Source: an uncultured Gammaproteobacteria bacterium | GTDB lineage: Bacteria; Pseudomonadota; Gammaproteobacteria; Natronospirales; JAJUFS01 | NCBI GenBank assembly: GCA_964599565.1 | Contig: CAZRFE010000004.1 | Coordinates: 3,680 to 67,679 of the forward strand | Reading direction: 5' to 3' | DNA: 64,000 nucleotides | In this document: piece by piece, positions 7,896 through 45,284 of the stretch | How positions within the stretch are numbered: position 1 is the stretch's first letter | Layout: each line of letters begins with the position of its first letter | Notes under the pieces: generated by a model | What the model was told of the DNA's origin: nothing | Databases searched by the model: none | The model's input: only the letters and a program-made list of their open reading frames with translations | Translations under genes and position numbers: made by a program

Positions 7896-7907
7896 GCGAT
7901 CTCCGTT

Positions 7908-11003: not shown

Positions 11004-11055
11004 GCAATGCCTCGTTCGTTGTCCCGGCCGCGGAACGGCCTTTCCAGATCCGCGG

Positions 11056-12582: not shown

Positions 12583-12624
12583 GCATGTCCCTCTGTGCGA
12601 TTACTTCGGTGCGGCGGCGGCGGA

Positions 12625-14258: not shown

Positions 14259-14265
14259 CACCCCG

Positions 14266-17310: not shown

Positions 17311-17326
17311 GGACGGGGAGGAAACC

Positions 17327-26628: not shown

Positions 26629-26639
26629 TGTGTTCTCCC

Positions 26640-29600
26640 TCAGTTTGCGCGGCTTTCGCCGACGCCAAGCTCCCGGTAGCGGCCCGGACGATCAGGATCC
26701 GGCACGAACCAGCCGGGTTGCCCGTCGGGCCGCCGGCCAAGGCGCGCACCCGGCGCAGGCGGCGCGCCCATCGTGGCGCCCGCCGGTGTTCTCGCCTTCG
26801 CGGGCTTCTCTTGCGCAACCGCCTGCGCTGCATCCGGAAAGAAACCGGCCGCGTGCATCTCGGCGAGCGCTTCCTGGAATACCTTGCTCACCTGCGCGAG
26901 ATCCGCATCGCTGTGCGCGGTGGTCAGGAAACACGGCTCGCCTTCGATCACGTGAACGCCGCCCGCGCGAAGCCTGGCTTCGAGAAGCCCGCGGCACGGC
27001 AGGCGCGCATCGACATCGATGAAGAACCATGACGAGAAACTGCGGATATCGACGGGCGCGTTGACGGCCTTCGCGTGCTGTTCCAGCTCGCATGCAAGTC
27101 TCGCGGTGCGCTCGTTCAACGTGCGCTGCAGCGACGGGCCGGATTCGCGAAGCTGCGCGAGCGTTGCTTCCGCCGCGGCGAGCGCGAGCGAATGCTGCGA
27201 GCCTGATGACGCATCGGCGCTGCACATCGCGTTCGCATCGCCCGCGAGCACGCCGAGCGGCATGCCACCGCCGACGGTCGCGCCATAGCATGAAAGATCC
27301 GCGCGCGTCCCGCAGATGCCGGGCGCGCCCGCGGGATGGACACGAAAGCCGCAGGCGATTTCATCGAACACCAGCAACGCGCCGCATTCGCGCGTTGCCG
27401 CGCGCAGCGCGGCGATGAAATCCGGCGCATAGCGTTCCGGGTGCAGGCTCTGCACGGGCTCGACGAGAACGGCCGCGAGCGTTTCGCGAAGTTCACGAAC
27501 GCGTTGCAGGGCGCGTTCGCTGCCGTAATCGAGAACCTCGATGCCGTCATCCGCTTCCCCATGCCCCCAAATGCGCGCGGACTCATCCGCAAACGTCACA
27601 ACCTTTCGCCGCTGCGTGACCGTGCGGGCGGCGTCGATCGCCGCGTGCAGCGCTTCCGTTCCGGTGGCATGGAAACTGACACGCTCGAAACCGGTCAGCG
27701 CCTGCACGAGGCGCGCAACGCGTCCGGCCAGCGGTGTCTGCAGCCCCGCCTCCGCGCCGCGCTTCATCTGCTGTCGCACAGCGTCGTTGATTGCGGGATT
27801 CGCATGACCGAGCAGGATCGCGCCGTGCGCGTTGACGAGGTCGATGTATCCGTTGCCGTCGATGTCCTGGATTCTCGAACCGGACGAGGATTCGATGACG
27901 ATCGGGTAGGCAATATCCGCGAGCATTGCATCGCCCGGTGCAGGCGCAATGCCGGCGAGATGCGCACGATGCGTGCGCGCAAACGCGCGCGAGCCGGATG
28001 TCCGCCAGGCATGGCGCCGGACGACATCGCGCACGTAATCCTTTCCTGCCGCGGAAAGTTCCTGTGCAGGCGCGCTGCGTGCATCCGTGACGGCACGCGG
28101 GGTGCTTGCAGATGCGTTCCGTGAAATTTCCTCATCCAGCAGCGCCGCGATCGCCGCGAGCGTGTTGTGTTCCACGAGCAGCTGCCGGAAGCGAAGATCA
28201 AGCCCGAAGCGCTTCTTCAGCGCCTGGCTGAACTGCGTCAGGAACAGCGAATCGAGCCCGAGCTGCGCAAACGGCACGGCGTGCATGGCAGGTCCGGTCT
28301 CGAGCCCGGAGACATCCGCAAGGAGTTCACCGAGTTGCTCGATCATCGGGCGTTCATCGACGCGCGCAACCTGCGGCGCGCTTTGCGGGCTGGCAGGTCC
28401 TGGTGATGCATCCGTTCGTGATGCCGCGGTGAGGGGAACGTCGCTCGCCGGCCGGCTGTCGAGCCAGTGGCGCGTGCGTTCGAACCGGTACGTGGGCGCG
28501 GGAACGCGACGCCGCGCGTTGTCATGCAGCGCCGTCCAGTCGATGGAAACGCCGTTCGTCCAGAGTCGTCCCGCGGCATCGAGCATCGCCACGCGCTCGT
28601 CGCTTCCTTCACGGTGCCTGCCGAGCGACGCGATGACCTGTACATCCGCGTCATCCGCGAAGGTCTGCGCGGCAAATGTCGACGCCGCCGTTCCAGGACC
28701 GCACTCGACGAATACAACATGTTCGCGGGATTCGCCCCGCGCCGACTGCAGCGCCTGCATGAAGCGCACGGGCTCGCGCAACTGGCGCGACCAGTACGCG
28801 GGATCCGTCGCCTGCGCCGCATCGAGCGGCGCACCGGTGACGGTCGAGACGATGTCGATGGCGGGCGGTGAAAGCGCGAGCTTGCCGACCGTTGTCTCGA
28901 ACGCCGCTGCAACGGGATCCATCATCGCGGAATGAAACGCGTGCGAGGTGCGCAGCGTGCTGCATGCCAAGCCGGCCTTCTCGAGACGCGACTTCGTGCG
29001 TGCGATCGCGGCATCGTCTCCCGACAGCACGCAGAAGCCCGGCGCATTCAGCGCCGCGATGGCAACGTCATCCGCAAGATGTTCGCGAACCGCGTCTTCC
29101 GCGGCGCGCACCGAAAGCATGGAGCCCGGCGGCTGCTCCTGCATCAGGCGTGCGCGTTCCGCGACCAGGCGTACGGCATCCTCGATACGGAATATTCCCG
29201 CGAGCGTTGCGGCGACGAACTCGCCGATGCTGTGGCCGACGAGCGCATCCGGCCTGACGCCGCGCTGCATCCACAGCCTTGCGATCGCATACTCGGCTGC
29301 GAACAGCGCGGGCTGCGTGTAGCGGGTTTCATCCAGCAGTTCCGTTGCGTTGTCCGTGCTGCCGAACATGATCTCGCGCAGGTCGAAATCGAGATCGTCC
29401 GCGAGCGCATCCGCGCAGCGATCGATGATGTCGCGTACCAGCGGTTCGGCGCGATAAAGCGGCTCGCACATGCCGGGACGCTGCGAACCCTGCCCGGGAA
29501 ACAGGAACACCACCCGAGGCCGTTCCTTTGCATTGCCCGTTCGCATGCGCGCGCCGCTGTTCCCTTTCAGGAGCGCTGCGGCTTCCGCGCGCGAACCCGC

Positions 29601-31106: not shown

Positions 31107-31108
31107 GT

Positions 31109-34100
31109 TCAGCGTTCGAACCTCCCCGTCTGCGTGGATGGCCGCCGGCGCCGCTGCATCGCTGCGCGCCGTACGGCGCCGCGACGTCCCGCATCGCGCA
31201 GGCGTTCCTCGGAATCGTCCGGTTCGCCGTGCGCGAGCCAGTGCGCGAGCGCGGCGATGGTCGGATGCTGGAACAGCCTGACGATGGGGAATGCGCGCTT
31301 GAGCTTCCTGCTCAGGCGTTCGTGAATCTCGATGAGTGCGACAGACTGCGCGCCGACGTCGAAGAAGTTCCGGTCGATATCGAAATTCTCGACGCCCAGC
31401 ACATCGCGGCATACCGATGCAACAAGCGCGGTCATGTCATCGCCGTTGCCGTCATCATCGGCGGCAATCGCGTCACCCGTTGCCGCCGCCTCTTCCTGCA
31501 ACGCGGTATCTGTCGCGCGGCGCATCGGTTTCTTATCCGCATCCAGCACGGTCGTTTCCGTGCGGTTCTGCACGGAGACATGATTGATGACCGTGGCAAC
31601 GCGCACGTCCGGCGTGCGCGTGATCGTGCGCAGTATGTCGATGAGATCGTTGCCGAGCGCTTCGACCGCGGCGTCGTCAAGGAGCGCCTTGTCGTGGAAG
31701 AACTCGATGCGGTGCGCAGGGCCCGGCATGATCGCGACGGTGAGCGGGTAGTTGGTGCGCACGCCGGCGGAGAACTCGCGCACCTTGATGCGCTCGCCCC
31801 AGCGGCGCGTCGCATCGCCGGTCGCGTAGTTCTGCAGAACGAGCAATGCATCGAACAGTCGCGCGCCCGCCGGGCTGCCCGACCATTCATGCACTTCAAG
31901 CGGCGAGACATTCTGGTAGTGATTCACGTCCGCCTGCGTGGCGCGCAGCGACGACAGCCACTCATCGACGCGCTGCTCGGGATTGATGCGCACGCGCACG
32001 GGAAGATCGTTCAGGAACGGACCTACAGTGTTCGCGGCATCCGCAACACCTGCCGTGCGCCCGGAGAATGCAACGCCGAGCGTGACATCGAAACGCAGGG
32101 TGATGCCGGAAAGCAGCAGCGCCCACGCGGCCTGGTACACGACGCCGGGCGTGAGCCTGAGCTTGCGCGCAAGCTGCATGACACCGGCGCCGAGTTCCTC
32201 GGGCAGCGCGATGCTTGCATGCCCTGCATCGTGCGGTCCTGCGCGGCCGTCATCCCTGCGCCGGCTGCGCGTGATCAGCGTGCGCTGCGCACGTCCGCCG
32301 AGATGCTCGCGCCAGAACGCCGCGTACTCGGTGAGATCGCGGTTCATCAGCCACGCGATGTAACTGCGGTACGAGCCGGGCGCATCGAGCACGGGTTCGC
32401 GTCCGGCAACCTGCGCGTCGTGCAGTTCGCCGAGTTCCTGCGCGAGTATCGGCCACGACCAGCCATCCACCAGCGCCTGGTGATGGCTCCAGACGAGCAT
32501 CCACCGGTCATCGCCCGCGCGAATCAGCGTCACGCGCGTCAGCGGTGCGACATGCAGCTCGAACCCCTGCCTCCGGTCCGCATCGAGAAATTCCTTCAGC
32601 CGCTGCTGCTGCGTGGTCTCGTCCAGCAACCGCCAGTCCGTCTTCTGCAGGCGGAACTCGACGTGGCGAAGCACGACCTGGTGCGGCTCGCCAAGACCGC
32701 GATCGACGAACACCGTGCGCAGCGCATCGTGGCGGCGCAGGAGTTCCCGCCATCCCGCCTCGAACGCACCTTCATCGATGCTTCCCTGCAGATGGAACAC
32801 CCATTGATCGAAACCCACGTCCCTGTCGGTGCCGGACAGCGCGTGATGGAGTCGCTGGATCGGCGAGAGCGGCAGGATTTCCTCGACGTTCTCGAGCGCA
32901 ACGGGAAACGCATCGAGCTCTTCCTGCGAGAGACGCGCAAGCGGGAAATCCACGGGCGAGCGCACGATGCCGTTGCGCGTGCGGCAGTGACGGATGATTT
33001 CATGCAGCGCATCGGCGTAATGGCCGGCAAGCGCGCCGACATCCGCTTCGGGAATGGCTTTCGGGCTGAAGCGGAACTCGAATTCCATCCGGTCATCGTG
33101 CACGGCCGCGGTGACCGTCAGCGCGTGCGCAAGGTGATTCTCCGCGCCGCGCTCGCGGCCGGTATCCTCGAAGACATGCTGGAACATGCCGCTTGCCAGT
33201 GCGCGCTCGAACTGGCCGCGGTAGTTGAACAGCACCGGCGCACGCTGTGCCTGCGCGCGGCCGAATGCGACGGCGCCGTTTGCGCGCAGGTAACGCAGCA
33301 TTCCCCAGCCCGCACCCTGGTGCGGCGCGCTTCGCATGCGCGTCTTTACATCGCAGATCAGGCGCGCAGGATTGCCGGCATGCGACTGGTCAAGCGCAAC
33401 CGGCTGCAGTACCGAGAACCACCCCACCGTGCCGGATACATCGAGTTCGCCGAAATTGTCGCTGCGGCCATGCCGCTGCACATCCACGCGCAACTGTCCG
33501 GCATGCGGCCATTTCACGGCGACCGCGCGCGACAGTGCGGCGAGCAGGAGTTCGTGCGTTTCCGTTCCATAGGCGTCATGGATGCCGCCGAGCAGCGCGG
33601 CGGTCGCCGGCGCTTCGAGCGTGATGCGCACCGTGCGCGCATCACGCTCCCTGCCGGGATCGTGCACGGCATCCGCAAGCGCGCTGTCATCCAGCGCATC
33701 GATCACCTGCTCCCAGTACGCATGCTCGCTGCCGATGAGCGCGGACTGAGCCTGGCGTTCAAGATGCGCCGCCCATCCGGCGTAGCTGATCGAACGCCGC
33801 ACGAACGTGGCGTCATGACCTTCCTCCAGCGCGCGGTATGCCGCATCGAGATCCTTGAGGATGATCGTCCACGATGCGGCATCGACGGCAAGCCGGTGGA
33901 TGACGATGAGCAGTCGCGCACCGTCTTCCAGCCCGCCGGTGAAGTGCGCGGCACGCACGAGCAGGCCGGCACTCAGGCTGAGCGATTCCTGGATTTCCTG
34001 CGTGATGAGTCCGACCGCTTCGCGGCGTTCCGCTTCATCGAGGTGATCAAGCTCGATGCGCGAGAACTCCAGCGCATCGGCCGGCTCGACGGGCTTCGAC

Positions 34101-37100
34101 ATCCACTTCCCGTTCGCATCGCGCAGGAACCGGACGTGCAGCGCGTCATGGCGTCGCACGACGTCGAGCATCGCGCGTTCGAGCAGTTCGACATTCGTGT
34201 CAGGCGGCAGTCGGAACAGAAAGCCTTCGTTCCAGTGATCGGGTTTCTCGAATCCCTGGTCGAAAAACCAGCGCTGTATCGGCGTCAGCGCCCACGGGCC
34301 GTCCTTGTTCACGTCGGCGTCCTCCTCTTTGGCAACGGCAGTTCCCGCATGGCTCGCAAGATCTGCGAGCACGGGATGGTTGAAGACATCGCGCGGCATG
34401 AGTTCAAGGCCCGCGGCGCGCGCGCACGCCACGAGCTTGAGCGCGAGTATCGAATCGCCGCCGAGACCGAAGAAATCCTCGTTGCGGCCGACATCGCCGC
34501 GCCCGAGCACTTCCTTCCACAGTCCGGCGAGCGTGATTTCCGCCGGCGTGCGCGGCGGATCGGTGACGGCGGCGGCAACGACGTCCGCGGGGTCTGGCAG
34601 CGCCTTGTAATCGATCTTGTTGTTCGCGTTCATCGGCAGCGCCGGCAGCGCGATGAACATCGCCGGCAGCATGTGCTCCGGCAGCTGCCGGGCGAGCTGC
34701 TCGCGCAACGACGCTTCCGTGTGCTCGCCGTTGTCCGCGACGTAGTACGCGAACAGCCGCCGGCTGCCATCCGCGGTTTCGCGCGGCACGATCAACGCCT
34801 CCGCGATGCCGGGGATGCGTTTCAGCGCGCTGGAGATCTCGCCGAGGTCGATGCGAAACCCGCGTATCTTGACTTCGTTGTCCTCGCGGCCGAGGTAGCA
34901 CAGTTCGCCGTTTCGCATGCGTCTTGCGAAATCGCCGGAACGGTACAGGCGCGCATTGCCGCTGGCTGCATGCGGATCGTCGATGAAACGCCGCGCGTTG
35001 AGTTCGGGACGGTTGAGATATCCGCGTGCAACGCCGGCGCCGCCGACGCAGATCTCGCCGCGCACGCCCGGCGGCACGTTGCGTCCGTCCGCGTCCAGCA
35101 GCCGCACGTAGAGATCCGGCAGCGGCCAGCCGACGAGCGAGCCGCTGTCGTTCGCGACATCGTGACGCGTGATGCGCCGGTACGTGACATGCACGGTGGT
35201 TTCCGTGATGCCGTACATGTTGATGAGCTCTGGGCTGTCATCGCCATGACGGTCGATCCAGCCGGAAAGGCTGCCGAGGTCGAGTTTCTCGCCGCCGAAG
35301 ACCACGCAGCGAAGCGCGGGAAGTTCACGCGTCGCTTCCGCGTCGATGCGCATCAGTTCGCGAAACGCCGAAGGCGTCTGGCTGAGTATGGTCACGCCGC
35401 GATCGGCAAGCAGCTGGTGGAAGGCATCGGGCGAGCGCGCGATGTCGCGCGTGACGATTTCAAGACGTCCGCCGTGCAGCAGCGCACCCCATATTTCCCA
35501 GACGGAGAAATCGAACGCAAAGGAATGAAACAGCGTCCAGACATCGCGGTCATCGGCATGCAGCCATGACTGGCAGGCATCGAACAGGCGCACGACATTG
35601 CGCTGCGTGACCATCACGCCTTTCGGCTGTCCCGTCGAGCCCGAGGTGTAGATGATGTAGGCGAGACTGTCGCCGGTTGCATCCATGGCCGGATCGGTTT
35701 CGTTCGCCTCGCCCGGTGCGACCGAAGGCTCGATGAACGCAAGCGAGGATCCGGGCAGCGCGCTGCGCGCCGATCCGGTCGCGACGACGAGATCGACGCC
35801 GGAATCCTCGATGAGAAACTGCAGGCGTTCCTCGGGATACGCAGGATCGAGCGGCAGGTAGCCGGCGCCGGACTTCAATATGCCGAGCATGCCGACGATC
35901 TGCTCGATGGAACGATCGACGCAAAGCCCGACGAGACGGTCCGCGCGCGCGCCCTTTTCGATCAGGCGATGTGCAAGACGATTCGCGGCCGCGTTCAGCT
36001 CCGCGTAGGTCATCGAGCGCGCACCGCAGGCGATCGCGATTGCCCCGGGATTCGCGGCTGCGCAATGCGCGAAGCGCGCGGCGATCGTGCCCGGCAGGTT
36101 CGGCGACGCGTCGACATCGTGCGGCCAGCAACATGGCAGCGCATCCTCGGCGCGCAGGCAGGAAACGTCCTTCACCGGTATCCACGGTTCGCGTGCAAGC
36201 CTCGTCAGCAGGTTCGCGTAGTGATCGAGAATGCGCGCGGCGGTTTCCTCGTCCGCGACCTCGGGTGCGCAGGCAAGACGAAGGCGGATATCCTCCTCGC
36301 CGTACACCTGTACGTGCATGTCCGCGAGCGGCGGTGCATCGTGGCGGAAATCGCGCGGCCCTTCACCGGCAAGCAGATCCTCGAGCGCCGCCATGGGATC
36401 GCGCAGGTCGAATTCGAGAACCGTATCGAACAGTGCGGCGGATGCATCGGTGCTGCGTTCGATATCCGCAAGGCGGCTGTTCTCGTGCTCGCGCACCAGG
36501 CGATGCGCATCCCGCATCTGCCAGAGAAGCTCGAAGGCGTTCGCGTGCGCGATGCGCGCGCGCAGCGGCACGATGTTCATGAAGGAGCCGAGCGCATCTT
36601 CAAGACCGGGCGGCCCGCTGCGCCGGCAGGAACGCAGCACGCCGAAGGCGACATCGTCGCTGCGCGCATAGTGTGACAGCAGCAGCGCCCAGGCCGCCTG
36701 CGCGAGATTGTTGAGCGTGACGTCCGCAGCCTTGTGCAGTCGGCGCACGCCGTCGCTTGTCGCCGCATCCAGCCGCCGCTCGACATGCACGTAATCCGGT
36801 GCATCCGCGGCGCGCTCGCATCGCGGCAGATCGATGCGCACCGGGTTGAAGTCGCGAAAGCACTCGCGCCAGAACGCGGCATCCGTGGCTTGCGTATCGT
36901 CGCGCTCCCAGCCCGGGGAGCCGGAAACGAGCGCGGCCGTCACCTCGGCATCGTCGCCGCCGGCGCGTATGGTGCGGTAGTTCGCGAACAGTTCGCGCAG
37001 CAGCGTGGACATGGAACGCCAGTCGAGCAGCGCGCGGCGCAGCGTCCACACCACGCGCGATGACGCATCGTCCCAGTTGACGAGCGCGACGTGAAACAGC

Positions 37101-37438
37101 GGCGGCGTGCCGCTATCGAAGCGCATGCGCATCCTGGCCGAACGAAACTCCGCGAAGCGCATCTCGCGTGTCGCGTCATTCGCAAGATCAAGCATCTCGA
37201 TCTCGATGTCGCCGCCCGTCGTCCCGCCGGCGTGCGCGTCATGGAATGCGTTGCGCAGGATGGCGTGCCGTGCGGCAAGATTGCGCCACGCCGCGGTGAA
37301 CGCGTCGCGATCGACGGGATTGTCGAGCGTGAAGACGATCTGCTCGGCGTGATCCCGTTCCAGCCGTGACCCGCCGTCGAACAACGCGCCGGCGCGCGGA
37401 GCGCTGCTGCGGCACGTCTGCCCGGTATCTGCTGACAT
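31109..37438 (-). CDS. NRPS (here NRPS1): C*(degenerate) - A(Thr-like) - T - E*(degenerate) - C - T
   Basis: 2109 aa. Motifs are located by residue count in the domain features that follow. Confidence 0.95.
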   Translation of the reverse strand: MSADTGQTCRSSAPRAGALFDGGSRLERDHAEQIVFTLDNPVDRDAFTAAWRNLAARHAILRNAFHDAHAGGTTGGDIEIEMLDLANDATREMRFAEFRSARMRMRFDSGTPPLFHVALVNWDDASSRVVWTLRRALLDWRSMSTLLRELFANYRTIRAGGDDAEVTAALVSGSPGWERDDTQATDAAFWRECFRDFNPVRIDLPRCERAADAPDYVHVERRLDAATSDGVRRLHKAADVTLNNLAQAAWALLLSHYARSDDVAFGVLRSCRRSGPPGLEDALGSFMNIVPLRARIAHANAFELLWQMRDAHRLVREHENSRLADIERSTDASAALFDTVLEFDLRDPMAALEDLLAGEGPRDFRHDAPPLADMHVQVYGEEDIRLRLACAPEVADEETAARILDHYANLLTRLAREPWIPVKDVSCLRAEDALPCCWPHDVDASPNLPGTIAARFAHCAAANPGAIAIACGARSMTYAELNAAANRLAHRLIEKGARADRLVGLCVDRSIEQIVGMLGILKSGAGYLPLDPAYPEERLQFLIEDSGVDLVVATGSARSALPGSSLAFIEPSVAPGEANETDPAMDATGDSLAYIIYTSGSTGQPKGVMVTQRNVVRLFDACQSWLHADDRDVWTLFHSFAFDFSVWEIWGALLHGGRLEIVTRDIARSPDAFHQLLADRGVTILSQTPSAFRELMRIDAEATRELPALRCVVFGGEKLDLGSLSGWIDRHGDDSPELINMYGITETTVHVTYRRITRHDVANDSGSLVGWPLPDLYVRLLDADGRNVPPGVRGEICVGGAGVARGYLNRPELNARRFIDDPHAASGNARLYRSGDFARRMRNGELCYLGREDNEVKIRGFRIDLGEISSALKRIPGIAEALIVPRETADGSRRLFAYYVADNGEHTEASLREQLARQLPEHMLPAMFIALPALPMNANNKIDYKALPDPADVVAAAVTDPPRTPAEITLAGLWKEVLGRGDVGRNEDFFGLGGDSILALKLVACARAAGLELMPRDVFNHPVLADLASHAGTAVAKEEDADVNKDGPWALTPIQRWFFDQGFEKPDHWNEGFLFRLPPDTNVELLERAMLDVVRRHDALHVRFLRDANGKWMSKPVEPADALEFSRIELDHLDEAERREAVGLITQEIQESLSLSAGLLVRAAHFTGGLEDGARLLIVIHRLAVDAASWTIILKDLDAAYRALEEGHDATFVRRSISYAGWAAHLERQAQSALIGSEHAYWEQVIDALDDSALADAVHDPGRERDARTVRITLEAPATAALLGGIHDAYGTETHELLLAALSRAVAVKWPHAGQLRVDVQRHGRSDNFGELDVSGTVGWFSVLQPVALDQSHAGNPARLICDVKTRMRSAPHQGAGWGMLRYLRANGAVAFGRAQAQRAPVLFNYRGQFERALASGMFQHVFEDTGRERGAENHLAHALTVTAAVHDDRMEFEFRFSPKAIPEADVGALAGHYADALHEIIRHCRTRNGIVRSPVDFPLARLSQEELDAFPVALENVEEILPLSPIQRLHHALSGTDRDVGFDQWVFHLQGSIDEGAFEAGWRELLRRHDALRTVFVDRGLGEPHQVVLRHVEFRLQKTDWRLLDETTQQQRLKEFLDADRRQGFELHVAPLTRVTLIRAGDDRWMLVWSHHQALVDGWSWPILAQELGELHDAQVAGREPVLDAPGSYRSYIAWLMNRDLTEYAAFWREHLGGRAQRTLITRSRRRDDGRAGPHDAGHASIALPEELGAGVMQLARKLRLTPGVVYQAAWALLLSGITLRFDVTLGVAFSGRTAGVADAANTVGPFLNDLPVRVRINPEQRVDEWLSSLRATQADVNHYQNVSPLEVHEWSGSPAGARLFDALLVLQNYATGDATRRWGERIKVREFSAGVRTNYPLTVAIMPGPAHRIEFFHDKALLDDAAVEALGNDLIDILRTITRTPDVRVATVINHVSVQNRTETTVLDADKKPMRRATDTALQEEAAATGDAIAADDDGNGDDMTALVASVCRDVLGVENFDIDRNFFDVGAQSVALIEIHERLSRKLKRAFPIVRLFQHPTIAALAHWLAHGEPDDSEERLRDAGRRGAVRRAAMQRRRRPSTQTGRFER
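31229..31441 (-). other. NRPS1 C-terminal carrier domain (T2) with no cognate A domain
   Basis: FFDVGAQSVALIEIHERL. The Ser2032 codon lies at 31343-31345. Confidence 0.75.
31604..32881 (-). other. NRPS1 condensation domain (DCL-like), intact HHxxxDG (approximate)
   Basis: ILPLSPIQRLHH..., SHHQALVDGWSW (aa 1652-1660). Confidence 0.8.
32954..34306 (-). other. NRPS1 epimerization-like domain with the catalytic His replaced (approximate)
   Basis: WALTPIQRWFF is an E-type N-terminus. The motif reads IHRLAVDAASW (aa 1181-1187; nt 33878-33898) instead of HHxxxDGxSW. Confidence 0.7.
34349..34546 (-). other. NRPS1 T domain 1 (E-associated type, GGDSI)
   Basis: FFGLGGDSILALK; Ser996. Confidence 0.8.
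34589..36091 (-). other. NRPS1 adenylation domain, Thr-like specificity code (approximate)
   Basis: YTSGSTGQPKG, FAFDFSVWE, NMYGITETTVH, GEICVGG, NNKIDYKAL. By-eye 10-residue code DFWSVGMVHK, versus the canonical Thr code DFWNIGMVHK. Confidence 0.75.
36119..37381 (-). other. NRPS1 N-terminal condensation-like domain lacking the HHxxxDG histidines (approximate)
   Basis: The C3 position reads VVWTLRRALLDWRSMS (aa 134-140; nt 37019-37039). Confidence 0.7.
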
Positions 37439-37666
37439 GGATGAGATGTCCTCCCTCGAGCGCGTGATTTATATGGCCGTCCTTGTGAACTGGACGGTTG
37501 CGGATGCCGTGAAGCGAGCGAAAGCGTGGCGCCTGCCGGCCGCGCTCCCCACAGCGGACCGATAACTGGATTTCTAGTGGATATGAGGCAAACCCCATAT
37601 AAGGCTTAGGCAGCAATTTGGGTTTGCTGCGTACACGCTTGCCTGTAGTGGAGTTCCAACGCGGGG

Positions 37667-37696
37667 AAAAAAAGAAAAACGGCGCACGGGCGCCGT
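37667..37696 (-). terminator. rho-independent terminator after the response-regulator gene
   Basis: The minus strand reads ACGGCGC-CCGT-GCGCCGT followed by TTTTTCTTTTTTT. Confidence 0.75.
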
Positions 37697-37775
37697 CTGA
37701 ATTCGAGGGAAGATATCGCGCGGCACGCCGCGAAAGGCATTCGCATGAATGCCTTTCGCCGCATGGAACGTGCGG

Positions 37776-38429
37776 CTAGCGGTCCGGCGCGATCAGGCCA
37801 AGACGCATGGCACAGCGCACGAGGCCGGCGACATCGTGGATGTCGAGGCGGTCCATGAGCTGCGCGCGGTGCGTTTCCACCGTCTTGAAGCTGAGCGAGA
37901 GGATTGCAGCGATCTGCTTGCTCGTGTTGCCTTCCGCGATGAGCTGCAGGATCTCGCGCTGGCGCGGCGTCAGCAGCTGCCGCGTGCGCGGCTGCACCTT
38001 GTTGCGCCCAAGGCACGAGTCGATCACGCTGCGCGAGATCGCAGGACTGAGAAACGTCTCGCCGCGCGAGACGGCGCGCACCGCGGATTCGAGTTCCGTC
38101 GTTGCCGCCGTCTTCACCATGTAGCCCGATGCGCCGGATTTCAGCGTCTGCATCACGTACTGCTCGTTCGCGTGCATGGAGAGCATGATGACCGACGTAT
38201 CCGGCACCGCGGCCTTGAGCTTCGGCAGCGCATCGAGACCGTTCAGCTCCGGCATGGTGATGTCCACGATGGAGACGTCGGGCTTCTTCTCGCGCGCGAC
38301 CTTGATCAGGTCAAGTCCGTTCTCGACTTCGGCCACGACGCTGACGTTGCGCATGTCGTTGAGCAGCGCGCGCAGGCCCGCCCGGAACAGGGCATGGTCG
38401 TCGGCCAGCATTACATTGATCTGTTTCAC
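37776..38429 (-). CDS. NarL/FixJ (LuxR-type HTH) response regulator
   Basis: 217 aa. LADDHALFR...DVSIVDITMPELNG (receiver domain) plus a C-terminal LTPRQREILQLIAEGNTSKQIAAILSLSFKTVETHR HTH. Confidence 0.9.
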   Translation of the reverse strand: MKQINVMLADDHALFRAGLRALLNDMRNVSVVAEVENGLDLIKVAREKKPDVSIVDITMPELNGLDALPKLKAAVPDTSVIMLSMHANEQYVMQTLKSGASGYMVKTAATTELESAVRAVSRGETFLSPAISRSVIDSCLGRNKVQPRTRQLLTPRQREILQLIAEGNTSKQIAAILSLSFKTVETHRAQLMDRLDIHDVAGLVRCAMRLGLIAPDR

Positions 38430-38469
38430 GTTGTTCTCCCCTCTTGCTTCAAGTCATCCGATGACGGTT

Positions 38470-40494
38470 TCAATGAACCCTGCGCCGCAGGTAGCGGCGA
38501 ATTTCGGTGTCCGTGACGGGCGGGCTGAAGAGATTGCCCTGGCCTTCGTCGCAGTCGCTTGAGCGGACGAAGATTCCCTGTGCTTCCGTTTCGATGCCTT
38601 CGGCGACGACGCCGAGGTTCAGCCGCTTGGCCATCGCGATGATCGCCTCGGTGAGCGCGACGTCATCCGCGCTTCCCGGCACGCCGCGGATGAAGGAGCG
38701 GTCGACCTTGAGATAATCGAGCGGAAACTTCCTGAGCATGTGCAGCGACGAATAGCCGGTGCCGAAATCGTCCACCGACAGCGAAACGCCGGTGCGCTTG
38801 AGACGCTGCAGGACGTCGGCGGCGACGACGTGATCCTGCATCATCGTGCTTTCGGTGATCTCGAGCTCGAGACGCTTCGCGTCAAGCCCGGTTTCGCGGA
38901 GTATGTCGAGCATGCGCGTATCGAGGCTGTCGTCGCGGAACTGTTTCGGCGAGACGTTCACGGAAATCCGCACGCCCGGCAGGCCATCTGCATCCCAGGC
39001 GAGCGCCTGGCGGCAGGCATCGCGCAGCACGCGGTCGCCGAGCGGCCCGATGAGGCCGACGTCCTCGGCGAGCGCGATGAAACGCGATGGCTCGACGTCG
39101 CCGAACTCCACGCTGTTCCAGCGCGCGAGGACTTCAAGCGCGCGCACGCGCCCGGTGCGAAGGTCGACGCGCGGCTGGTAGCGCAGGCTGATCTCGTCCG
39201 ATTCGATCGCGTTGCGCAGGCCGTTCGCGAGCGCGAGCGTTTCGAACGCGCGGCTCGACATCTCCGCGGAATGGAAACGATAGCCGCGCCGGCCGCTGCT
39301 CTTCACGTGGTACATCGCTGCGTCCGCGTTGCGCAGCAGCGATGCCGCGTCGTTCGCGTCACCCGGATAGCAGCTGATGCCGATGCTCGCCGACATCGTG
39401 AAGCGTCGTCCGCGGATGTGATATGGCCGCACGAGTTCATCGAGGATCTTCTTTGCGGCGGCGGCGGCATCCTGCGGTTCCGCGATGCCATCGAGCAGCA
39501 CGGTGAACTCGTCGCCGCCGAGACGGCCGATCATGTCGTTGCCGCGCACGCAACGCCTGAGGCGTTCGGAAACCTGCTGCAGGAGATCGTCGCCGACCGC
39601 ATGACCGAACGTGTCGTTGATGTGCTTGAAGCGGTCGAGATCGAGAAACAGGCAGGCGATCATCTCGTCGTGACGATCCGCGCGCCGCGCGCTCTTGCCG
39701 AGCTGTTCCATGAACATGCTGCGGTTCGCCACGCCCGTCAGTGCATCATGGTTGGCAAGATAGGCAAGCTGCTGTTCCTCGCTCTTGCGTTCCGTGATGT
39801 CGACGACGAACGATTCAAGCTGCGCGCCGTCCGCGCCGCACCGGCGCACGTTGCCGCCGTGCCAGAGCCATTTCTCCGCGCCGTTCGCGCAATGCAGGCG
39901 ATGCTCGATCGAAAACGGCTTGCCGGATCGAAGCGCGCGCTGCAGCGCGGTCATGACGCGGCGCCGGTCCGCGGCAGGCACCAGCGCGAGCAGGCGCTCG
40001 CTGCCGTGGCCGGTGAAATGCGATGCGCGGTGACCGCAAAGTTCGAGTGCCTTTGGACTGACGAACGTCACGCGGCCGCCCTCGCCGATGCCGCAGCGGA
40101 GCACGACCCCGGGCAGCCCGGCGATGAGGTCGTGGACCGGTTCCGCTGCATTCCGCGCAATGGCCTTTGCAGCGGCATCATCGCGGTCGTGGTGACGAAT
40201 GTCGGGATCGCCAAGCAGTTCGGCGATCGCCGCCGGCAGGGCATCGAAATCCGCGATGCGCATGCGGCGCGACACCATCGATGTGCGCCCGTTGACAATC
40301 AGCAGGCCGCTCTCGCCGGAAGGCGCATCGAACGCGATCACGTCGTGCTCCCCGAGCGGCAGCGTGATGTCCTTGCCGGGCAGGCGCGGAATGTCGAAGC
40401 ACATGTCGACGCCTTGCGCCGCAAGCGCGCGCTGCGCAGCGCTGCCACGTGCCACCGACGTGCCGACGAACAGCACGGAAATCCTGCGACCCAC
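38470..40494 (-). CDS. PAS-GGDEF-EAL c-di-GMP turnover protein with a receiver-like N-terminal region
   Basis: GGDEF is intact (RLGGDEF) with an RGND I-site 5 aa upstream. EAL-domain motifs EVLARW, DDFGTGYSSL, KVDRSF, EGIETE, QGNLFS. Start chosen at GTG 40494 (GGAG 7 nt upstream); ATG 40644 is the alternative. Confidence 0.85.
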   Translation of the reverse strand: MGRRISVLFVGTSVARGSAAQRALAAQGVDMCFDIPRLPGKDITLPLGEHDVIAFDAPSGESGLLIVNGRTSMVSRRMRIADFDALPAAIAELLGDPDIRHHDRDDAAAKAIARNAAEPVHDLIAGLPGVVLRCGIGEGGRVTFVSPKALELCGHRASHFTGHGSERLLALVPAADRRRVMTALQRALRSGKPFSIEHRLHCANGAEKWLWHGGNVRRCGADGAQLESFVVDITERKSEEQQLAYLANHDALTGVANRSMFMEQLGKSARRADRHDEMIACLFLDLDRFKHINDTFGHAVGDDLLQQVSERLRRCVRGNDMIGRLGGDEFTVLLDGIAEPQDAAAAAKKILDELVRPYHIRGRRFTMSASIGISCYPGDANDAASLLRNADAAMYHVKSSGRRGYRFHSAEMSSRAFETLALANGLRNAIESDEISLRYQPRVDLRTGRVRALEVLARWNSVEFGDVEPSRFIALAEDVGLIGPLGDRVLRDACRQALAWDADGLPGVRISVNVSPKQFRDDSLDTRMLDILRETGLDAKRLELEITESTMMQDHVVAADVLQRLKRTGVSLSVDDFGTGYSSLHMLRKFPLDYLKVDRSFIRGVPGSADDVALTEAIIAMAKRLNLGVVAEGIETEAQGIFVRSSDCDEGQGNLFSPPVTDTEIRRYLRRRVH

Positions 40495-40712
40495 TCGCGC
40501 ACTCCGGAATCCTGCCTGAAGGACGCCCGCCGCCGCCTCGTGGCGTTGCCGCCTGCGAGCCGGTACCGGCTGGCGTGGAAAATGAAAACCCGCAGGTAGT
40601 CTCAGGTGGCAGGAGTGTGGCATTCCATCCGTTAATTCATTCATTTCGGATGCAGCGGCACGCCCAGCCGCGACGCAGGTCACGTTATGTTTCCCCGGTG
40701 CGCGGCGTGCAT

Positions 40713-41735
40713 TCACAACGGCACCCGTATGCAGATCCGCGCGCCCTCGCCCGGCGCGGATTCGACGTCGACCTTGCCACCGAGCACCGCGATGCGCTCG
40801 CGAATGCCGAGAAATCCAAGCTGGCGTCCGCCGCGAATGGTCACATCGCCGACATCGAAGCCGACGCCGTCGTCGCGCACTTCGCAGAATACGTCCTCGC
40901 CGCGGACTTCGAGCATGATCCACACGTTGCTGGCGCTCGCATGCTTGATGACGTTGTTGAGCATTTCCTGGATGCAGCGATACAGCGCGGTTTCGACGAC
41001 AGCGGGTGGACGCTGCGCCAGGCGGTTGTCGACGTGAATCTCGAGGCCTGCACGCTTCGCCACGCCATCCACGAGAAACTCCACGGCGCCGGTGAGGCCT
41101 GCGTTCTCGAGCACGCGCGGCCGCAATTCGTGCGAGACATGGCGAAGGTCGCGCTCGAGTTCATCGAGCAGTTCGTGCGCGCGCCTGAGCTCGTCCCTGC
41201 CCTCCGGCGTCACATGCTTTGCGATGCCGTAAAGCGAGATGTGCACGCAGGCAAGGTACTGCCCCGCGCCATCGTGAATGGCATGCGCGATGCGGCGCAC
41301 TTCATCTTCGAGCATTTCGTTGAGATGCCGCATCGCGGTGCTCGCTTCGCGATAGCCGCGCGAACTCATCTCATATGGCGAGAGAAATTCCGACAGGACG
41401 GTGCCGGCAATATCGCAGCACGCGGTGCGATCGGCGTCCGGCGGCATGGCGTCGAGCACGTCGCACAGTGCGGCGTGATGCATTTCCACGACGGACAGCA
41501 GCCCGACTTCCTTGACGACGGCTTCGCGCCCGAGATGGTAGATGCGAAGCAGATCCTCTTCCTCGCGGTGCGAGAGATAGCGTTCGAGCAGTGCGGTGTA
41601 GCGCTGCCGCAGTTCGTCCGCGGGGTCTGCGCGCGCGGCGTCGGTGTCGATCCTGCGGCGCGTGCGCACGCTCCCGGTCTTCATGGTCGCGACCGTTGCG
41701 GTCTGGCGCGCCGAATGACCGGGCTTGCGCATCAT
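40713..41735 (-). CDS. histidine kinase: RsbU_N-like N-terminal domain + HisKA_3 + HATPase_c (no TM segments)
   Basis: The N-terminus LRQRYTALLERYLSHREEEDLLRIYHLGREAV resembles the B. subtilis RsbU N-terminal (RsbT-binding) domain. IAHAIHDGAGQYL (HisKA_3 His), NNVIKH, DDGVGF, GFLGIRER. ATGA overlap with the upstream gene. Confidence 0.85.
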   Translation of the reverse strand: MMRKPGHSARQTATVATMKTGSVRTRRRIDTDAARADPADELRQRYTALLERYLSHREEEDLLRIYHLGREAVVKEVGLLSVVEMHHAALCDVLDAMPPDADRTACCDIAGTVLSEFLSPYEMSSRGYREASTAMRHLNEMLEDEVRRIAHAIHDGAGQYLACVHISLYGIAKHVTPEGRDELRRAHELLDELERDLRHVSHELRPRVLENAGLTGAVEFLVDGVAKRAGLEIHVDNRLAQRPPAVVETALYRCIQEMLNNVIKHASASNVWIMLEVRGEDVFCEVRDDGVGFDVGDVTIRGGRQLGFLGIRERIAVLGGKVDVESAPGEGARICIRVPL

Positions 41736-42364
41736 GACGAGGTGCTCTCGTCGAGCCCGCGGTAACGAAGCGCGAGCACGAACGCATCGTCCTTGCCGTG
41801 GCAGTGACGTTCGCGGATTGCCTTTGCAAGCGCGGCAGGGCCGATGTTCGGCCGGTATTCGCCGTACCATCCGTAACCGACGCCGTCGGTCGCAACGACG
41901 ATCATGTCGCCCGGCTTGAGCATGGCATGCGAGGGGCGCAGTTCCGGCAGGCGATCGCCGACCACGCCGGCGCGCAGGACGAGCGACTCGAACTGCGGCA
42001 TGCCATGCGTATCAAGCTGGATGCGCACGGCCTGGATGTTGCCGACACTGAGCCACGTCATCGCGCCGGCGGCGGCGTCGATGGAAAGAAGGCACATCGC
42101 GGAGCCGCGCGTGCCCTGCAGCTTGCGGTGACAGTGTTCGATGATGGCGGCGAGCGAGGTATCGGCGTTGCAGTCTGCAAGTTCGCGTTCCGTGCGTTCG
42201 GCCATGCGCGCGGCTTCGCTGCCGTGTCCGAGCGCGTCGATGACGAACGCGAACGCACGCAATCCGTCGACACGCACATCGCCGCTGTCGCCGCTCTCGG
42301 AACCGCCTTCATAGGGAACGGACTCGACGTGCCAGTCAACGATCTGTCGCGTCAGAGCTTCCAC
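41732..42364 (-). CDS. rsbX: PP2C/SpoIIE-type serine phosphatase, RsbX-like
   Basis: GDSGDV..., AFVIDALGHG, ATDGV motifs. About 210 aa from GTG 42364, which overlaps the end of the upstream gene. The track ORF extends further upstream in the same frame with junk-like sequence. Confidence 0.7.
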   Translation of the reverse strand: MEALTRQIVDWHVESVPYEGGSESGDSGDVRVDGLRAFAFVIDALGHGSEAARMAERTERELADCNADTSLAAIIEHCHRKLQGTRGSAMCLLSIDAAAGAMTWLSVGNIQAVRIQLDTHGMPQFESLVLRAGVVGDRLPELRPSHAMLKPGDMIVVATDGVGYGWYGEYRPNIGPAALAKAIRERHCHGKDDAFVLALRYRGLDESTSS

Positions 42365-42780
42365 TTCGTCACCGTGACGCAGGTACCGGCTCCCGCGTTC
42401 GATTCCAGGTCGAAGTTGTCCATGATGTGGCGCACGCCGGCAAGACCAAGGCCAAGGCCGCCGGATGTCGAGAAACCGCCGCGTATCGCCTGCTCGATGT
42501 TGCCGATGCCGGGCCCCGAATCGCGCGCAACGATGCGTATGCCGCTTGCACCGCCGTTGTGCACAAGCTCGAGATGAATCTCCCCGTAGTTCGCGTACTC
42601 GATGATGTTGCGCGCAAGCTCGGAGATCGCTGTCGCGATCAGCGTCAGCTCGCTGGACGAGAATCCCGCCTGCTCGGCGAGCATCCGGCCGGCGTGACGC
42701 GCAGAGACGAGATCCGTGTCGGATTCGATCCGTACGCGTACGCCGTGCTGCTGGGATTCGTGGGTGGTTATCTTCGTCAC
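42352..42780 (-). CDS. rsbT: RsbT-like switch serine kinase (GHKL ATPase)
   Basis: 142 aa. ELARNIIEYA (N-box), DSGPGI (G1), GGLGLGLAG (G2). Confidence 0.85.
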   Translation of the reverse strand: MTKITTHESQQHGVRVRIESDTDLVSARHAGRMLAEQAGFSSSELTLIATAISELARNIIEYANYGEIHLELVHNGGASGIRIVARDSGPGIGNIEQAIRGGFSTSGGLGLGLAGVRHIMDNFDLESNAGAGTCVTVTKWKL

Positions 42781-42789
42781 ATTGCACCG

Positions 42790-43149
42790 CTACGTTTCGG
42801 CGTCCACGGAATCGAGGAATGCAAGACCTTCTTCAAGGTCAAGCGCAGTCGAAACATCGGCGAGCGTTATGCCGAGCTGCACCATTGCAAACGCAACGTC
42901 GGGCTGAATGCCGACGATGACGGTGTGCGCGCCGCGCAGGCGGATCATGTATGCGAGGTCGCGCAGCGTGCGTGATGCAAACGAGTCGAGCACGTCGAGC
43001 GCGGTCACGTCGACGATCACGCCGCGCGAACGGAAGCGTCCGACCTTTTCCACCAGCGCATCCCGCAGCTGCACGAAATCCTGGTCAGTCAGCGCTGCCT
43101 GGATCGTCGCGATCAGGTAATGCGATTGCTTGAGAATAGGGACTGCCAC
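42790..43149 (-). CDS. rsbS: RsbS-like STAS-domain stressosome scaffold/antagonist
   Basis: 119 aa single STAS domain. VIVDVTALDVLDSFASR carries the conserved phosphorylatable Ser. Confidence 0.85.
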   Translation of the reverse strand: MAVPILKQSHYLIATIQAALTDQDFVQLRDALVEKVGRFRSRGVIVDVTALDVLDSFASRTLRDLAYMIRLRGAHTVIVGIQPDVAFAMVQLGITLADVSTALDLEEGLAFLDSVDAET

Positions 43150-43181
43150 CTGGCCTCCCCCCCTGTGTCATTTCCAGTGGA

Positions 43182-44087
43182 TCACGGCTTCTTTGGAGCC
43201 GGAACGTCATCGTGCATCACGACCTTGTAGCCGAGCAGGCGTTCGGCTTCTTCGATACCGCCCTGCAGGTCGCCGACGGTGTTCATCTTCGCGAGATCCA
43301 CGCCGATGTTCACGAGTGTCTGCGCAATGTCCGGCGACAGGCCCGTCACGATGACGGTCGCACCGAGCAGTCGCGATGCTTCCACGGTCTGCACAAGATG
43401 GTTCGCGACGTGCGAATCCATTTCCGCCACACCGGTGATGTCGATCACGACCACGCGCGCGCGGTTTGCGCGAATCGCCTGCAGCAGCTGCTCGGTGAGC
43501 TGGCGTGCGCGCAAGGGATCGATGACGCCGATGATGGGAAGAATGAGCAGGCGTTCACGCACCTGGAGAACCGGCGTGGACAGCTCGCGGATGGCTTCCT
43601 GCTGCTCGCGGATGATGCGCTCGCGCTCCTGCACGAAGCCGACCGCCACCGTGTTCGCGATCCTGTTCGCCGCAGGCTCGTATGCGTCGAGAATGCGGTT
43701 CAGCAGATCGAAGTCGGAGCGGTACTTGCCGAACAGCGATCGTGCAAGCACGTCGCGCAGCAGCAGCACGATGCCGACCACTTCGTCGGTTTCGACGCCG
43801 CGTGGAATGATGCGCTCGGAAAGATTGCGCGCGTATGCCTGCAGGGCTTCGAACGTGCCGGTTTCCAGCGCTTCCACGTAGTTGTCGTACACGGACGTGG
43901 CTTCGGCGAAGATTTCTTCCTTGGTCATCGCCGTGAGCAGGCGCGCCTCGGTGATTCTGCGCGCCCATTCCTCGCGCAGTTCGGTGCGGTTGTCGCGCAG
44001 GTGAGCGACGAGTTCCCGCAGCAGTGCGACAGTGGATTCCGTCATGGCGGGATTTACCGTCTTCTTGGTTGATTTGACAATGGCCAT
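43182..44087 (-). CDS. rsbR: RsbR-like stressosome sensor (N-terminal globin-like domain + STAS)
   Basis: 301 aa. The C-terminal LSTPVLQVRERLLILPIIGVID...VVIDITGVAEMDSHVANHL...IVTGLSPDIAQTLV matches RsbR STAS. RBS GAGGAGG upstream. Confidence 0.85.
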   Translation of the reverse strand: MAIVKSTKKTVNPAMTESTVALLRELVAHLRDNRTELREEWARRITEARLLTAMTKEEIFAEATSVYDNYVEALETGTFEALQAYARNLSERIIPRGVETDEVVGIVLLLRDVLARSLFGKYRSDFDLLNRILDAYEPAANRIANTVAVGFVQERERIIREQQEAIRELSTPVLQVRERLLILPIIGVIDPLRARQLTEQLLQAIRANRARVVVIDITGVAEMDSHVANHLVQTVEASRLLGATVIVTGLSPDIAQTLVNIGVDLAKMNTVGDLQGGIEEAERLLGYKVVMHDDVPAPKKP

Positions 44088-44720
44088 CGCGACCTCCTCG
44101 CTCCGGTATTAAAGGTTGACTGACCTGTTCCGGAATCCTTCCCGGACGGGCATCTGCCGGGGATGAAGCCGTCCTGGCAACCCCCGGCTGCCGGGTACCG
44201 TGATGCGCGCGTCGCGCCGTCTCCCGGGCCTGCCTTTGGCAATGTGCCGGGAGCGGATGACGTACGACAGGATTCCCCCGTTCACGCCGGTTCCGACGTT
44301 CCCTTGTACCGGGGGACGTTCGGGCCGAAGCGGGATCCGTTGTCAAAATGTGGATGATCGTCCCATTAAGAAACATGACCCTATCGCTTTCAAGGTTCTG
44401 GATCAAATCCCTGATGACCTCGCTACGCGGCTACCCCTGAACCCTGCCTGAATATGGCCTAAAACCAGCATGAATCAGGGGGTTACCGGCTGCGCCAAAA
44501 CCCTTAGATCGCAAGGCTAGCCCAGCGCCGATACCGGCTATATACGGTCATCACCTTATATTGGCGCCGTTGCGCGACGCCGCAGCGAACGTCGTCCATG
44601 AGGAAAACAGCGGCAACCCTTCGCCGTACTGCCGGGCACGGATGCCTGCCGCGGATGCGATCTGGCAAAGTCCGTCACCGTCCCGTGAGCCAGCCCGCCA
44701 CCGGCGGAAGGTCGCGCATC

Positions 44721-45284
44721 GTGAGGAGCGCAAGCAATGTTGCCGTTCTTGTCGGCAGCCTGCGCAGGAGCGCATACAACCGGAAGATCGCACAGGCGCT
44801 GACCGATCTTGCGCCGCGCTCGCTGCGTCTTGAAGTCGTCGAGATCGCACGGCTGTCGCTTTACGATCCCGAGCGCGACACCGCCTCGCCACCCCTCGAC
44901 TGGAAACTCTTCCGACAGCAGATACGTGCGGCCGACGCCGTGCTCTTCCTTGCGCCGGAGTGCCGCTGCGCGGTGCCCGCCGTGCTGAGAAACGCACTCG
45001 AGATCGCATCGCGGCCGTTCGCGGACAACGCGTGGACGGGCAAGCCCGGCGGCGTCATGTGCATCACGCCGACGGGCGCCGCCGGAACCTGCGCCGACTA
45101 CCGGCTGCGCCAGACGCTGGTCCTGCTCAACGTTCCCGTCATGCAGCCGCCGTATGCCTGCGTGCGCGAAAGCGATCGCCTGCTGGATGCCGGCGGCCGG
45201 CTGAACGATCCGCGCGCGCGCACGTTCCTGCAGGAATTCATCGGCGCGTTCGACAACTGGGTACACACCACGTCGCGTCACTGA
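44721..45284 (+). CDS. NAD(P)H-dependent FMN reductase family oxidoreductase
   Basis: VAVLVGSLRRSAYNRKIA...ADAVLFLAPE...LRNALEIASRP pattern. GTG 44721 (GGAAGG upstream) gives the typical ~187 aa. The track ATG 44598 would add an Arg-rich extension. Confidence 0.7.
   Translation: MRSASNVAVLVGSLRRSAYNRKIAQALTDLAPRSLRLEVVEIARLSLYDPERDTASPPLDWKLFRQQIRAADAVLFLAPECRCAVPAVLRNALEIASRPFADNAWTGKPGGVMCITPTGAAGTCADYRLRQTLVLLNVPVMQPPYACVRESDRLLDAGGRLNDPRARTFLQEFIGAFDNWVHTTSRH

Follow-up and report, generated by a model that had tools for sequence, protein, structure and literature searches.

A stressosome operon with a predicted two-component output and a clade-specific GGDEF-EAL gene in an uncultured soil gammaproteobacterium

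The stretch of DNA analysed here (the window; 64,000 nucleotides, positions 3,680-67,679 of contig CAZRFE010000004.1) carries a stressosome locus of seven co-directional genes on the minus strand at 37776-44087. In the direction of transcription they encode RsbR, RsbS, RsbT, an RsbX-type phosphatase, a soluble histidine kinase, a PAS-GGDEF-EAL protein and a NarL-type response regulator. A preliminary description of this DNA, made from its sequence, had reported seven such genes at these coordinates, and all of them were found there; its domain assignments for RsbS, RsbT, the RsbX-like PP2C, the kinase, the GGDEF-EAL protein and the regulator agreed with our Pfam scan. It had also pointed to Gram-negative stressosomes with two-component or cyclic di-GMP (c-di-GMP) outputs, a precedent that is real (PMC9237108, PMC12143880). 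Since operons with such outputs and with RsbU_N-bearing kinases have been published, the locus is a stressosome operon of a class already known from genome comparisons, with a clade-specific gene insertion. The questions behind such systems are which signals stressosomes perceive and by what route they act in bacteria lacking sigma-B.

Gene starts were refined from the sequence and from the gene calls in homologous contigs, which are referred to below by their L numbers where they need to be told apart. The first gene, rsbR (43182..44087, 301 aa), is followed after 32 nt by rsbS (42790..43149, 119 aa), and this after only 9 nt by rsbT (42352..42780, 142 aa). The start of rsbX (41732..42364, 210 aa) was refined to the GTG at 42364, which gives a 13-nt overlap with rsbT; the rsbX gene calls in L001 and L003 have the same length and the same overlap. 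For the kinase gene (40713..41735, 340 aa), the start was refined to the ATG at 41735, forming an ATGA overlap of 4 nt with the rsbX stop codon. The overlaps among the first five genes are kept in relatives, and the refined starts and overlaps thus indicate that these five genes are tightly packed. Beyond the kinase gene, a gap of 218 nt (40495..40712) precedes the PAS-GGDEF-EAL gene (38470..40494, 674 aa), and a further 40 nt separate that gene from the regulator gene (37776..38429, 217 aa). The start of the PAS-GGDEF-EAL gene was placed at the GTG at 40494, which lies behind a GGAG common to all five clade members compared (5/5), and not at the head of the long open reading frame at 40923.

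RsbR comprises an RsbR_N-type N-terminal domain (~43737-44006) and a STAS domain (~43296-43574). Pfam recognised the STAS domain at 54.2/22.6 (here and below, bit score/gathering cut-off), and the N-terminal domain, when scanned alone, gave RsbRD_N (25.8/24.3) as its best match. The entire protein could be aligned with Listeria RsbR (9o4r/7b0u; E=1.5e-31), whereas only the STAS domain aligned with the haem-binding RsbR of Vibrio vulnificus (7o0i_B). Because of this difference we assign the N-terminal domain, by sequence, to the non-haem kind found in Bacillus and Listeria and not to the O2-sensing globins of Vibrio. The sole histidine of this domain, H29, is situated near its N-terminal end, unlike the position of the globin proximal histidine. 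Of the globin-STAS architecture proposed earlier, the STAS part consequently stands and the globin part does not. With regard to the phosphorylation sites, the position of the first phospho-threonine (T171 in B. subtilis, T175 in L. monocytogenes) is occupied by proline (IDPLRA), as it is in all members of the family, and the second (T205 and T209, respectively) by serine, for which relatives have serine, valine or alanine.

The remaining core proteins were assigned in a similar manner. RsbS is a single-STAS scaffold protein (41.3 bits) that matches Listeria RsbS (6qcm_A; E=6.8e-25); its phospho-acceptor Ser56 (VLDSFAS) aligns with the corresponding serine of Listeria and Bacillus RsbS and is invariant in 13 loci. 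RsbT is a GHKL-type serine kinase (HATPase_c_2, 49.1 bits) that aligns to SpoIIAB-type kinases and contains the ATP-binding boxes N, G1 (DSGPGI) and G2 (GGLGLGL). The RsbX-type PP2C phosphatase gave a SpoIIE match (46.0 bits) and contains no second domain. RsbR is present in a single copy in the window, without paralogues, and a scan that covered most of the window's larger predicted genes showed none for RsbV, RsbW or a sigma factor.

In the kinase, Pfam identified RsbU_N (PF08673; ~41424-41606, 40.8/25.5), HisKA_3 (~41109-41297, 35.0/24) and HATPase_c (~40716-40994, 58.3 bits). The likeness of the kinase N-terminus to the RsbT-binding domain of RsbU, noticed in the preliminary description, is also borne out by PDB sequence matches: for residues 36-135 the four best were B. 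subtilis RsbU N-domains (2j6z, 1w53, 2j70 and 2j6y; E=0.0045-0.045), and these alignments were free of gaps over residues 5-68 of each. An AlphaFold2 (AF2) model built from 32 homologues had a mean per-residue confidence (pLDDT) of 78 overall and of more than 90 over residues 41-120. Helices were predicted at residues 38-56, 59-74, 79-96 and 103-172, the last of which continues unbroken into the H-box helix of the dimerisation and histidine phosphotransfer region, and the geometry of the four-helix N-domain matches that proposed for RsbU_N-coupled kinases (PMC12143880). Searching for similar folds with the complete kinase model returned kinase cores alone and gave no link to RsbU_N; the assignment draws on the Pfam match, the AF2 helices and the PDB sequence matches. 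The kinase core resembles DesK/VraS and contains the H-box HAIHDGAGQ as well as the ATP-binding boxes. NCBIfam assigned both the kinase and the regulator to the NarL class and gave neither an equivalog-level name. The NarL/LuxR-type regulator combines a receiver (Response_reg, 94 bits) with a GerE helix-turn-helix (64.1 bits), and its receiver residues are canonical (DD10-11, D56, S and K106, all invariant columns in the alignment).

From these data we consider it likely that the locus encodes an rsbR-rsbS-rsbT-rsbX stressosome that signals to a cognate two-component system and not to a sigma factor, the GGDEF-EAL protein being a side branch. All protein-protein and phosphotransfer steps in this scheme, and the regulon, are extrapolated by homology from B. 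subtilis and Listeria and from the work on RsbT and RsbU. Accordingly worded, the RsbR and RsbS STAS domains would form a large scaffold sequestering the RsbT kinase. Upon a signal received via the RsbR N-domain, RsbT would phosphorylate Ser56 of RsbS and be set free. Free RsbT would then bind the dimeric four-helix RsbU_N of the kinase and stiffen the helix running into the H-box, which would switch on autophosphorylation at the histidine of HAIHDG. The phosphoryl group would be transferred to Asp56 of the NarL-type regulator, leading to changed transcription, and the RsbX phosphatase would reset the scaffold. The PAS-GGDEF-EAL protein is probably co-expressed, possibly from a promoter of its own in the 218-nt gap, and would adjust c-di-GMP by its own PAS input, in parallel to the phosphorelay and not as a direct target. 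Since RsbU_N is fused to the kinase, the RsbT target is recognisable and the step from RsbT to the kinase can be tested directly in vitro. The Vibrio stressosome, by comparison, has yielded no demonstrated RsbT target.

The step from RsbT to the kinase could also be pictured differently, with RsbT not binding RsbU_N but phosphorylating the histidine kinase, for instance in the N-terminal tail of the latter. The tail (41631-41735, minus strand) comprises about 35 residues, is rich in Ser, Thr and Arg, starts TATVATMKTGSVR and is predicted to be disordered. It is a possible phosphorylation or regulatory site. Its segment TATVATMKTGSVRSR is kept in most of the closest homologues, that is, in the clade, and RsbT-dependent phosphorylation has been proposed for kinases without RsbU_N (PMC9237108). 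However, more distant RsbU_N kinases of the module family lack the tail and still have RsbU_N, and the established mechanism for RsbU is binding (PMC12143880). We therefore regard phosphorylation in place of binding as very unlikely.

Some observations weigh against the stressosome-to-kinase phosphorelay as we propose it. Firstly, RsbR has no equivalent of the Bs-T171/Lm-T175 threonine, so that its phosphorylation logic may differ from that in Bacillus; the proline at this position thus suggests a modified logic, but is no argument against a stressosome fold. Secondly, given the conserved motif in the 218-nt gap (see below), the last two genes may have a transcript of their own, apart from rsbRSTX and the kinase gene. 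Thirdly, an interaction between RsbT and the kinase was not detected in V. vulnificus, although the V. vulnificus kinase is without RsbU_N (PMC9237108).

Among known systems, the locus resembles the stressosomes of B. subtilis and L. monocytogenes in its non-haem RsbR N-domain followed by STAS, the phospho-serine of RsbS, the GHKL-type RsbT and the single-domain PP2C RsbX, and also in that the presumed RsbT target carries RsbU_N. It differs from them in that RsbU_N is fused to a HisKA_3 kinase, with no RsbU phosphatase, RsbV, RsbW or SigB, that rsbX directly follows rsbT, that RsbR has proline at T171/T175 and that the window contains only one RsbR. With V. vulnificus and V. brasiliensis (VvD1-VvD2; PMC9237108, PMC4976288, PMC10436020) it shares a Gram-negative rsbRSTX module that is followed by a two-component system with a link to c-di-GMP turnover; co-transcription of the stressosome module with the downstream module is documented for V. 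vulnificus (PMC10436020). In contrast to the present locus, RsbR of Vibrio binds haem and senses O2 as a globin-coupled protein, and RsbU_N was undetected in VvD1 (PMC9237108) whereas it is clearly present in the kinase of the window. Furthermore, the c-di-GMP enzyme is here a separate PAS-GGDEF-EAL protein and the regulator a NarL-type DNA binder.

The closest parallels are the RsbU_N kinases of other Proteobacteria. Two-component and c-di-GMP outputs of stressosomes, and RsbU_N on proteins encoded downstream in some alpha-, beta- and gamma-Proteobacteria, have been described (PMC9237108, Heinz 2022), and RsbU_N kinases in stressosome operons, such as the NreB-like MBI3545564.1, have been cited and modelled (PMC12143880, eLife 2025). 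These kinases share with ours the combination of RsbU_N and a NarL-class core, the operon context and the predicted coiled-coil or continuous helix from RsbU_N into the kinase (PMC9237108, PMC12143880). They differ in being known from sequence and AlphaFold models only, and in that the clade of the window adds a PAS-GGDEF-EAL gene before the regulator gene.

The module is widespread. More than 750 kinase homologues were obtained at E<=1e-10, and RsbU_N was present in 117 of the 120 best. In species-representative genomes the six-gene order RsbR-RsbS-RsbT-RsbX-kinase-regulator was found in at least six distant lineages (Acidobacteriota, Verrucomicrobiia, Steroidobacteraceae, Terriglobia, Rokubacteria and Gemmatimonadales). 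As this order recurs in unrelated phyla, it does not represent a chance juxtaposition. Among 31 long soil-metagenome loci, the gene downstream encoded an RsbU_N kinase in 16, which have the arrangement with the NarL regulator, and a sigma-54 activator in 12. The latter is a protein of about 470 aa in which Sigma54_activat, AAA_lid_14 and HTH_8 come after an N-domain that is receiver-like but degenerate; its genes are located at 9319-10734 in L087, 9322-10716 in L102, 9351-10814 in L134 and 2773-4182 in L137, and further such loci are L092, L093, L097, L098, L110, L124, L129 and L164. The literature searched contained no mention of a sigma-54 activator as a stressosome output. The window locus, whose own clade consists of uncultured soil Gammaproteobacteria, is thus best seen as an ordinary member of a large soil-borne family, to which it adds one clade-specific c-di-GMP gene.

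The conservation of RsbR within this family is in our opinion a more useful lead than the locus itself. RsbR is 97-99% identical within the clade and 85-91% identical across phyla in local alignment (85-88% in global alignment), the cross-phylum set comprising Gammaproteobacteria, Acidobacteriota, Verrucomicrobiota, Rokubacteria and Gemmatimonadota. The corresponding values within the clade and across phyla are 95-98% and 72-82% for RsbS, 74-90% and 54-59% for RsbT, 47-69% and 35-39% for RsbX, 65-71% and 38-49% for the kinase, and 93-98% and 43-47% for the regulator. Both domains of RsbR contribute to the cross-phylum identity (N-domain 85-89%, STAS 81-92%), while RsbR N-domains are generally called variable (PMC4976288). 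The rsbR genes concerned are those at 43182-44087 of the window and in L009-L018 and L085-L164. At the DNA level, second codon positions of rsbR were 92-93% identical across phyla and third positions only 51-58% (51-72% when the clade and the other phyla are both counted). This difference between second and third positions points to purifying selection and not to recent transfer. RsbR of this kind was found in at least 574 metagenome stretches, the best 80 of which were 81-92% identical, and the same RsbR is wired either to an RsbU_N kinase or, in ~40% of the soil loci, to a sigma-54 activator. No mention of this cross-phylum conservation was found in the literature searched. It is conceivable, although we put it forward only tentatively and as the less probable case, that RsbR of the module family senses something universal. 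Conservation of this degree would point to a ligand that is fixed or to a cellular partner that is conserved, and could offer the field a tractable handle on the signals of stressosomes.

The sixth gene encodes a protein with a PAS domain (PAS_3; ~39838-40068), a GGDEF domain (~39289-39756, 168.8 bits) and an EAL domain (~38518-39222, 230.5 bits), all on the minus strand. The GGDEF active site is intact (RLGGDEF), with an I-site (RGND) 5 residues upstream. The EAL motif itself is an EVL variant, and QPR, N, ELEITES, DDFGTG, KVD, EGIET and GQG are all present. The intact GGDEF, I-site and EAL motifs described earlier can therefore be read from the sequence, with EVL for EAL, and both domains are predicted to be catalytically competent. 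The protein contains neither RsbU_N nor a receiver domain. In the absence of RsbU_N there is no evident direct input from RsbT, and here the protein differs from MtG of Moorella thermoacetica, which, as far as it is summarised in PMC12143880 (citing Quin 2012), is an RsbU_N-GAF-GGDEF fusion; the MtR-MtS-MtT system to which MtG belongs is similar in having a c-di-GMP output and not a sigma factor.

Preceding the PAS domain is an N-terminal extension of ~125 residues (~40120-40494), which the preliminary description had taken for a possible pseudo-receiver. On that reading, RsbT would act on the kinase, and the kinase in series on the pseudo-receiver GGDEF-EAL protein and the NarL-type regulator, together gating the adjacent gene clusters for a nonribosomal peptide synthetase-polyketide synthase (NRPS-PKS) and for exopolysaccharide (EPS). 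The extension gave no Pfam match even at E<=10, and two word-based homologue searches returned nothing. An exhaustive HMMER search of 1.84 billion representative proteins retrieved a single cluster of orthologues and, besides it, only a spurious match to a repeat protein. In profile comparison with hhalign the probability of a match to the receiver profile was 0.5%, and no similarity was seen to the STAS or sigma-54-activator N-domain profiles; as a control, the degenerate receiver-like domain of another protein was detected weakly but colinearly by the same method. An AF2 model of the extension reached a pLDDT of 53, with two main helices and several short ones, and no receiver was present among the 50 best fold matches listed for this low-confidence model. 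It should be underlined that this fold test is weak, because the alignment consisted of two sequences. The best of these matches, to anticodon-binding domains of aminoacyl-tRNA synthetases (E ~2e-3, TM-score ~0.48), were set aside as untrustworthy. Since a receiver signal was missing where the control was detected, the pseudo-receiver idea is unsupported. Among orthologues the extension diverges rapidly, with insertions and deletions, and in L007 and L008 it is absent: there the same ribosome-binding site precedes a protein that begins with the PAS domain. Judged from these comparisons, the extension is an orphan, fast-evolving region.

The position of the GGDEF-EAL gene within the operon also bears on the proposal of outputs in series. 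A GGDEF-EAL gene between the kinase and regulator genes was found in the clade of the window only (L001/L005, L006, L003/L004, L007 and L008), and in none of the 31 long metagenome loci (0/31) could a GGDEF or EAL gene be detected in this place. We therefore take the gene to be a later, clade-specific insertion into an ancestral kinase-regulator pair, lying behind the 218-nt gap. In other phyla, GGDEF genes do occur beside the module, either after the regulator gene or divergently upstream of rsbR. These recurrent neighbours would lend the serial reading some weight, but they indicate that a loose association with c-di-GMP is the family trait and the in-series layout a local insertion. The earlier proposal of two outputs in series is not borne out, because the GGDEF-EAL protein has no RsbU_N and no receiver domain.

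The 218-nt gap contains a bipartite motif, ATGAAWTRACSGATGG-N16-CACYKGAGACT (40596-40640, minus strand), in which an alignment of five clade members shows two conserved blocks around a fixed, non-conserved spacer of 16 nt. The motif is unique within the window. Such a layout looks like a promoter or operator, and the last two genes may have a regulated start of their own; the gap with its promoter-like motif therefore makes it possible that GGDEF-EAL and the regulator are transcribed apart from rsbRSTX and the kinase. In this case rsbR to the kinase gene would form one transcript, and the GGDEF-EAL and regulator genes would be expressed from the gap promoter, possibly under autoregulation, so that c-di-GMP turnover would be a transcriptional and not a post-translational output. 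A split of this kind is compatible with the phosphorelay, and we consider it a serious possibility, somewhat short of an even chance. The gap is ~170-260 nt long in all clade members, compared with a kinase-to-regulator spacing of ~15-25 nt for most of the relatives in other phyla; a fixed 16-nt spacer between two conserved blocks is the usual layout of bipartite promoters and operators; and RNA structure does not explain the conservation, as the motif gave no Rfam match and no convincing fold (weak energies and little covariation in RNAalifold). On the other hand, the motif matched no recognisable promoter class, no sigma-70-like promoter was found in a scan of 37000-45000, and no terminator was found downstream of the kinase gene. 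The motif can moreover be read in frame as a peptide (M-x-E-x-T-D-G...H-x-R-L) in four of the five genomes, which would speak against a promoter. This reading as a coding N-terminus was set aside because the GGAG and the start codon downstream of it are conserved in 5/5 genomes; in addition, motif and PAS domain are in different reading frames in L008.

At its other end the operon is closed by a hairpin and an intrinsic terminator (37667..37765, minus strand). The hairpin, with 19-nt arms (37724-37765), lies directly past the stop codon of the regulator gene and is followed by the terminator, which was graded strong and consists of a stem of 9 pairs, 6 of them GC (37677-37698), and a T-run. 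In relatives, terminators in the gap between the regulator and NRPS genes are inconsistent, with weak candidates in L003 and none in L001 and L008. Past the terminator, but before the start codon of the NRPS gene at 37438, there is a strongly conserved non-coding block of ~90 nt (37563-37651, minus strand), of which ~50 nt are identical to L001 and L006, despite kinases in these two loci that are only ~70% identical to that of the window. The block is unique in the window and contains the palindrome TATGGGG-TTTG-CCTCATA (37582-37599); it gave no Rfam family and no RNA fold supported by RNAalifold. It probably belongs to the promoter or operator region of the NRPS gene and is a candidate operator. 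An Rfam scan of the window returned no family at threshold and no c-di-GMP riboswitch; a weak suhB/mmgR match (E=0.024) sits on the terminator.

The adjoining NRPS-PKS (19841-37438) and EPS-type/glycosyltransferase (~1280-18400) loci named in the preliminary description are both real, and it is their adjacency alone that would suggest control by the stressosome. In each of the six distinct loci of the clade an NRPS follows the regulator gene, and matrix production is commonly under c-di-GMP control; the palindromic block upstream of the NRPS start and the nearby EPS-type locus could be viewed in the same light. However, the hairpin and terminator separate the operon from the NRPS gene, and outside the clade the stressosome module has no NRPS neighbour. 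The genes on the opposite flank (flavin mononucleotide (FMN) reductase, DUF218, S8 peptidase, DUF6502, OmpA and malic enzyme) are likewise conserved in most clade members, and with synteny on both flanks the NRPS adjacency may reflect shared ancestry and not functional linkage. Nor was a shared operator motif detected among the regions upstream of rsbR, in the gap and upstream of the NRPS, which had only GC-rich background k-mers in common. Together with the lack of a receiver signal in the N-terminal extension, these findings make the serial, stress-gated switch for NRPS-PKS and EPS improbable in our view, and we retain the phosphorelay with GGDEF-EAL as a side branch.

Some further features of the neighbouring genes were observed. 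Two NRPS genes with a condensation-adenylation-thiolation (C-A-T) organisation (19841-23347 and 23344-26628, minus strand) contain spurious internal open reading frames that are equal in length and offset by a constant 3449 nt, which suggests two recently duplicated, near-identical NRPS modules. The PKS module (26640-31412, minus strand) consists of ketosynthase, acyltransferase and acyl carrier protein domains followed by a class-III aminotransferase, a layout typical of assembly lines for beta-amino-fatty-acid lipopeptides of the iturin/mycosubtilin type. The first NRPS protein has three condensation-type domains. Finally, the divergent region between rsbR and the FMN-reductase gene contains two conserved elements on the minus strand, namely TTTCTTAATGGGA-N6-TCCACATT at ~44345-44375, about 260-285 nt upstream of rsbR, and TATAAGG-N6-CCGTATA at ~44540-44560, beside the FMN-reductase gene.

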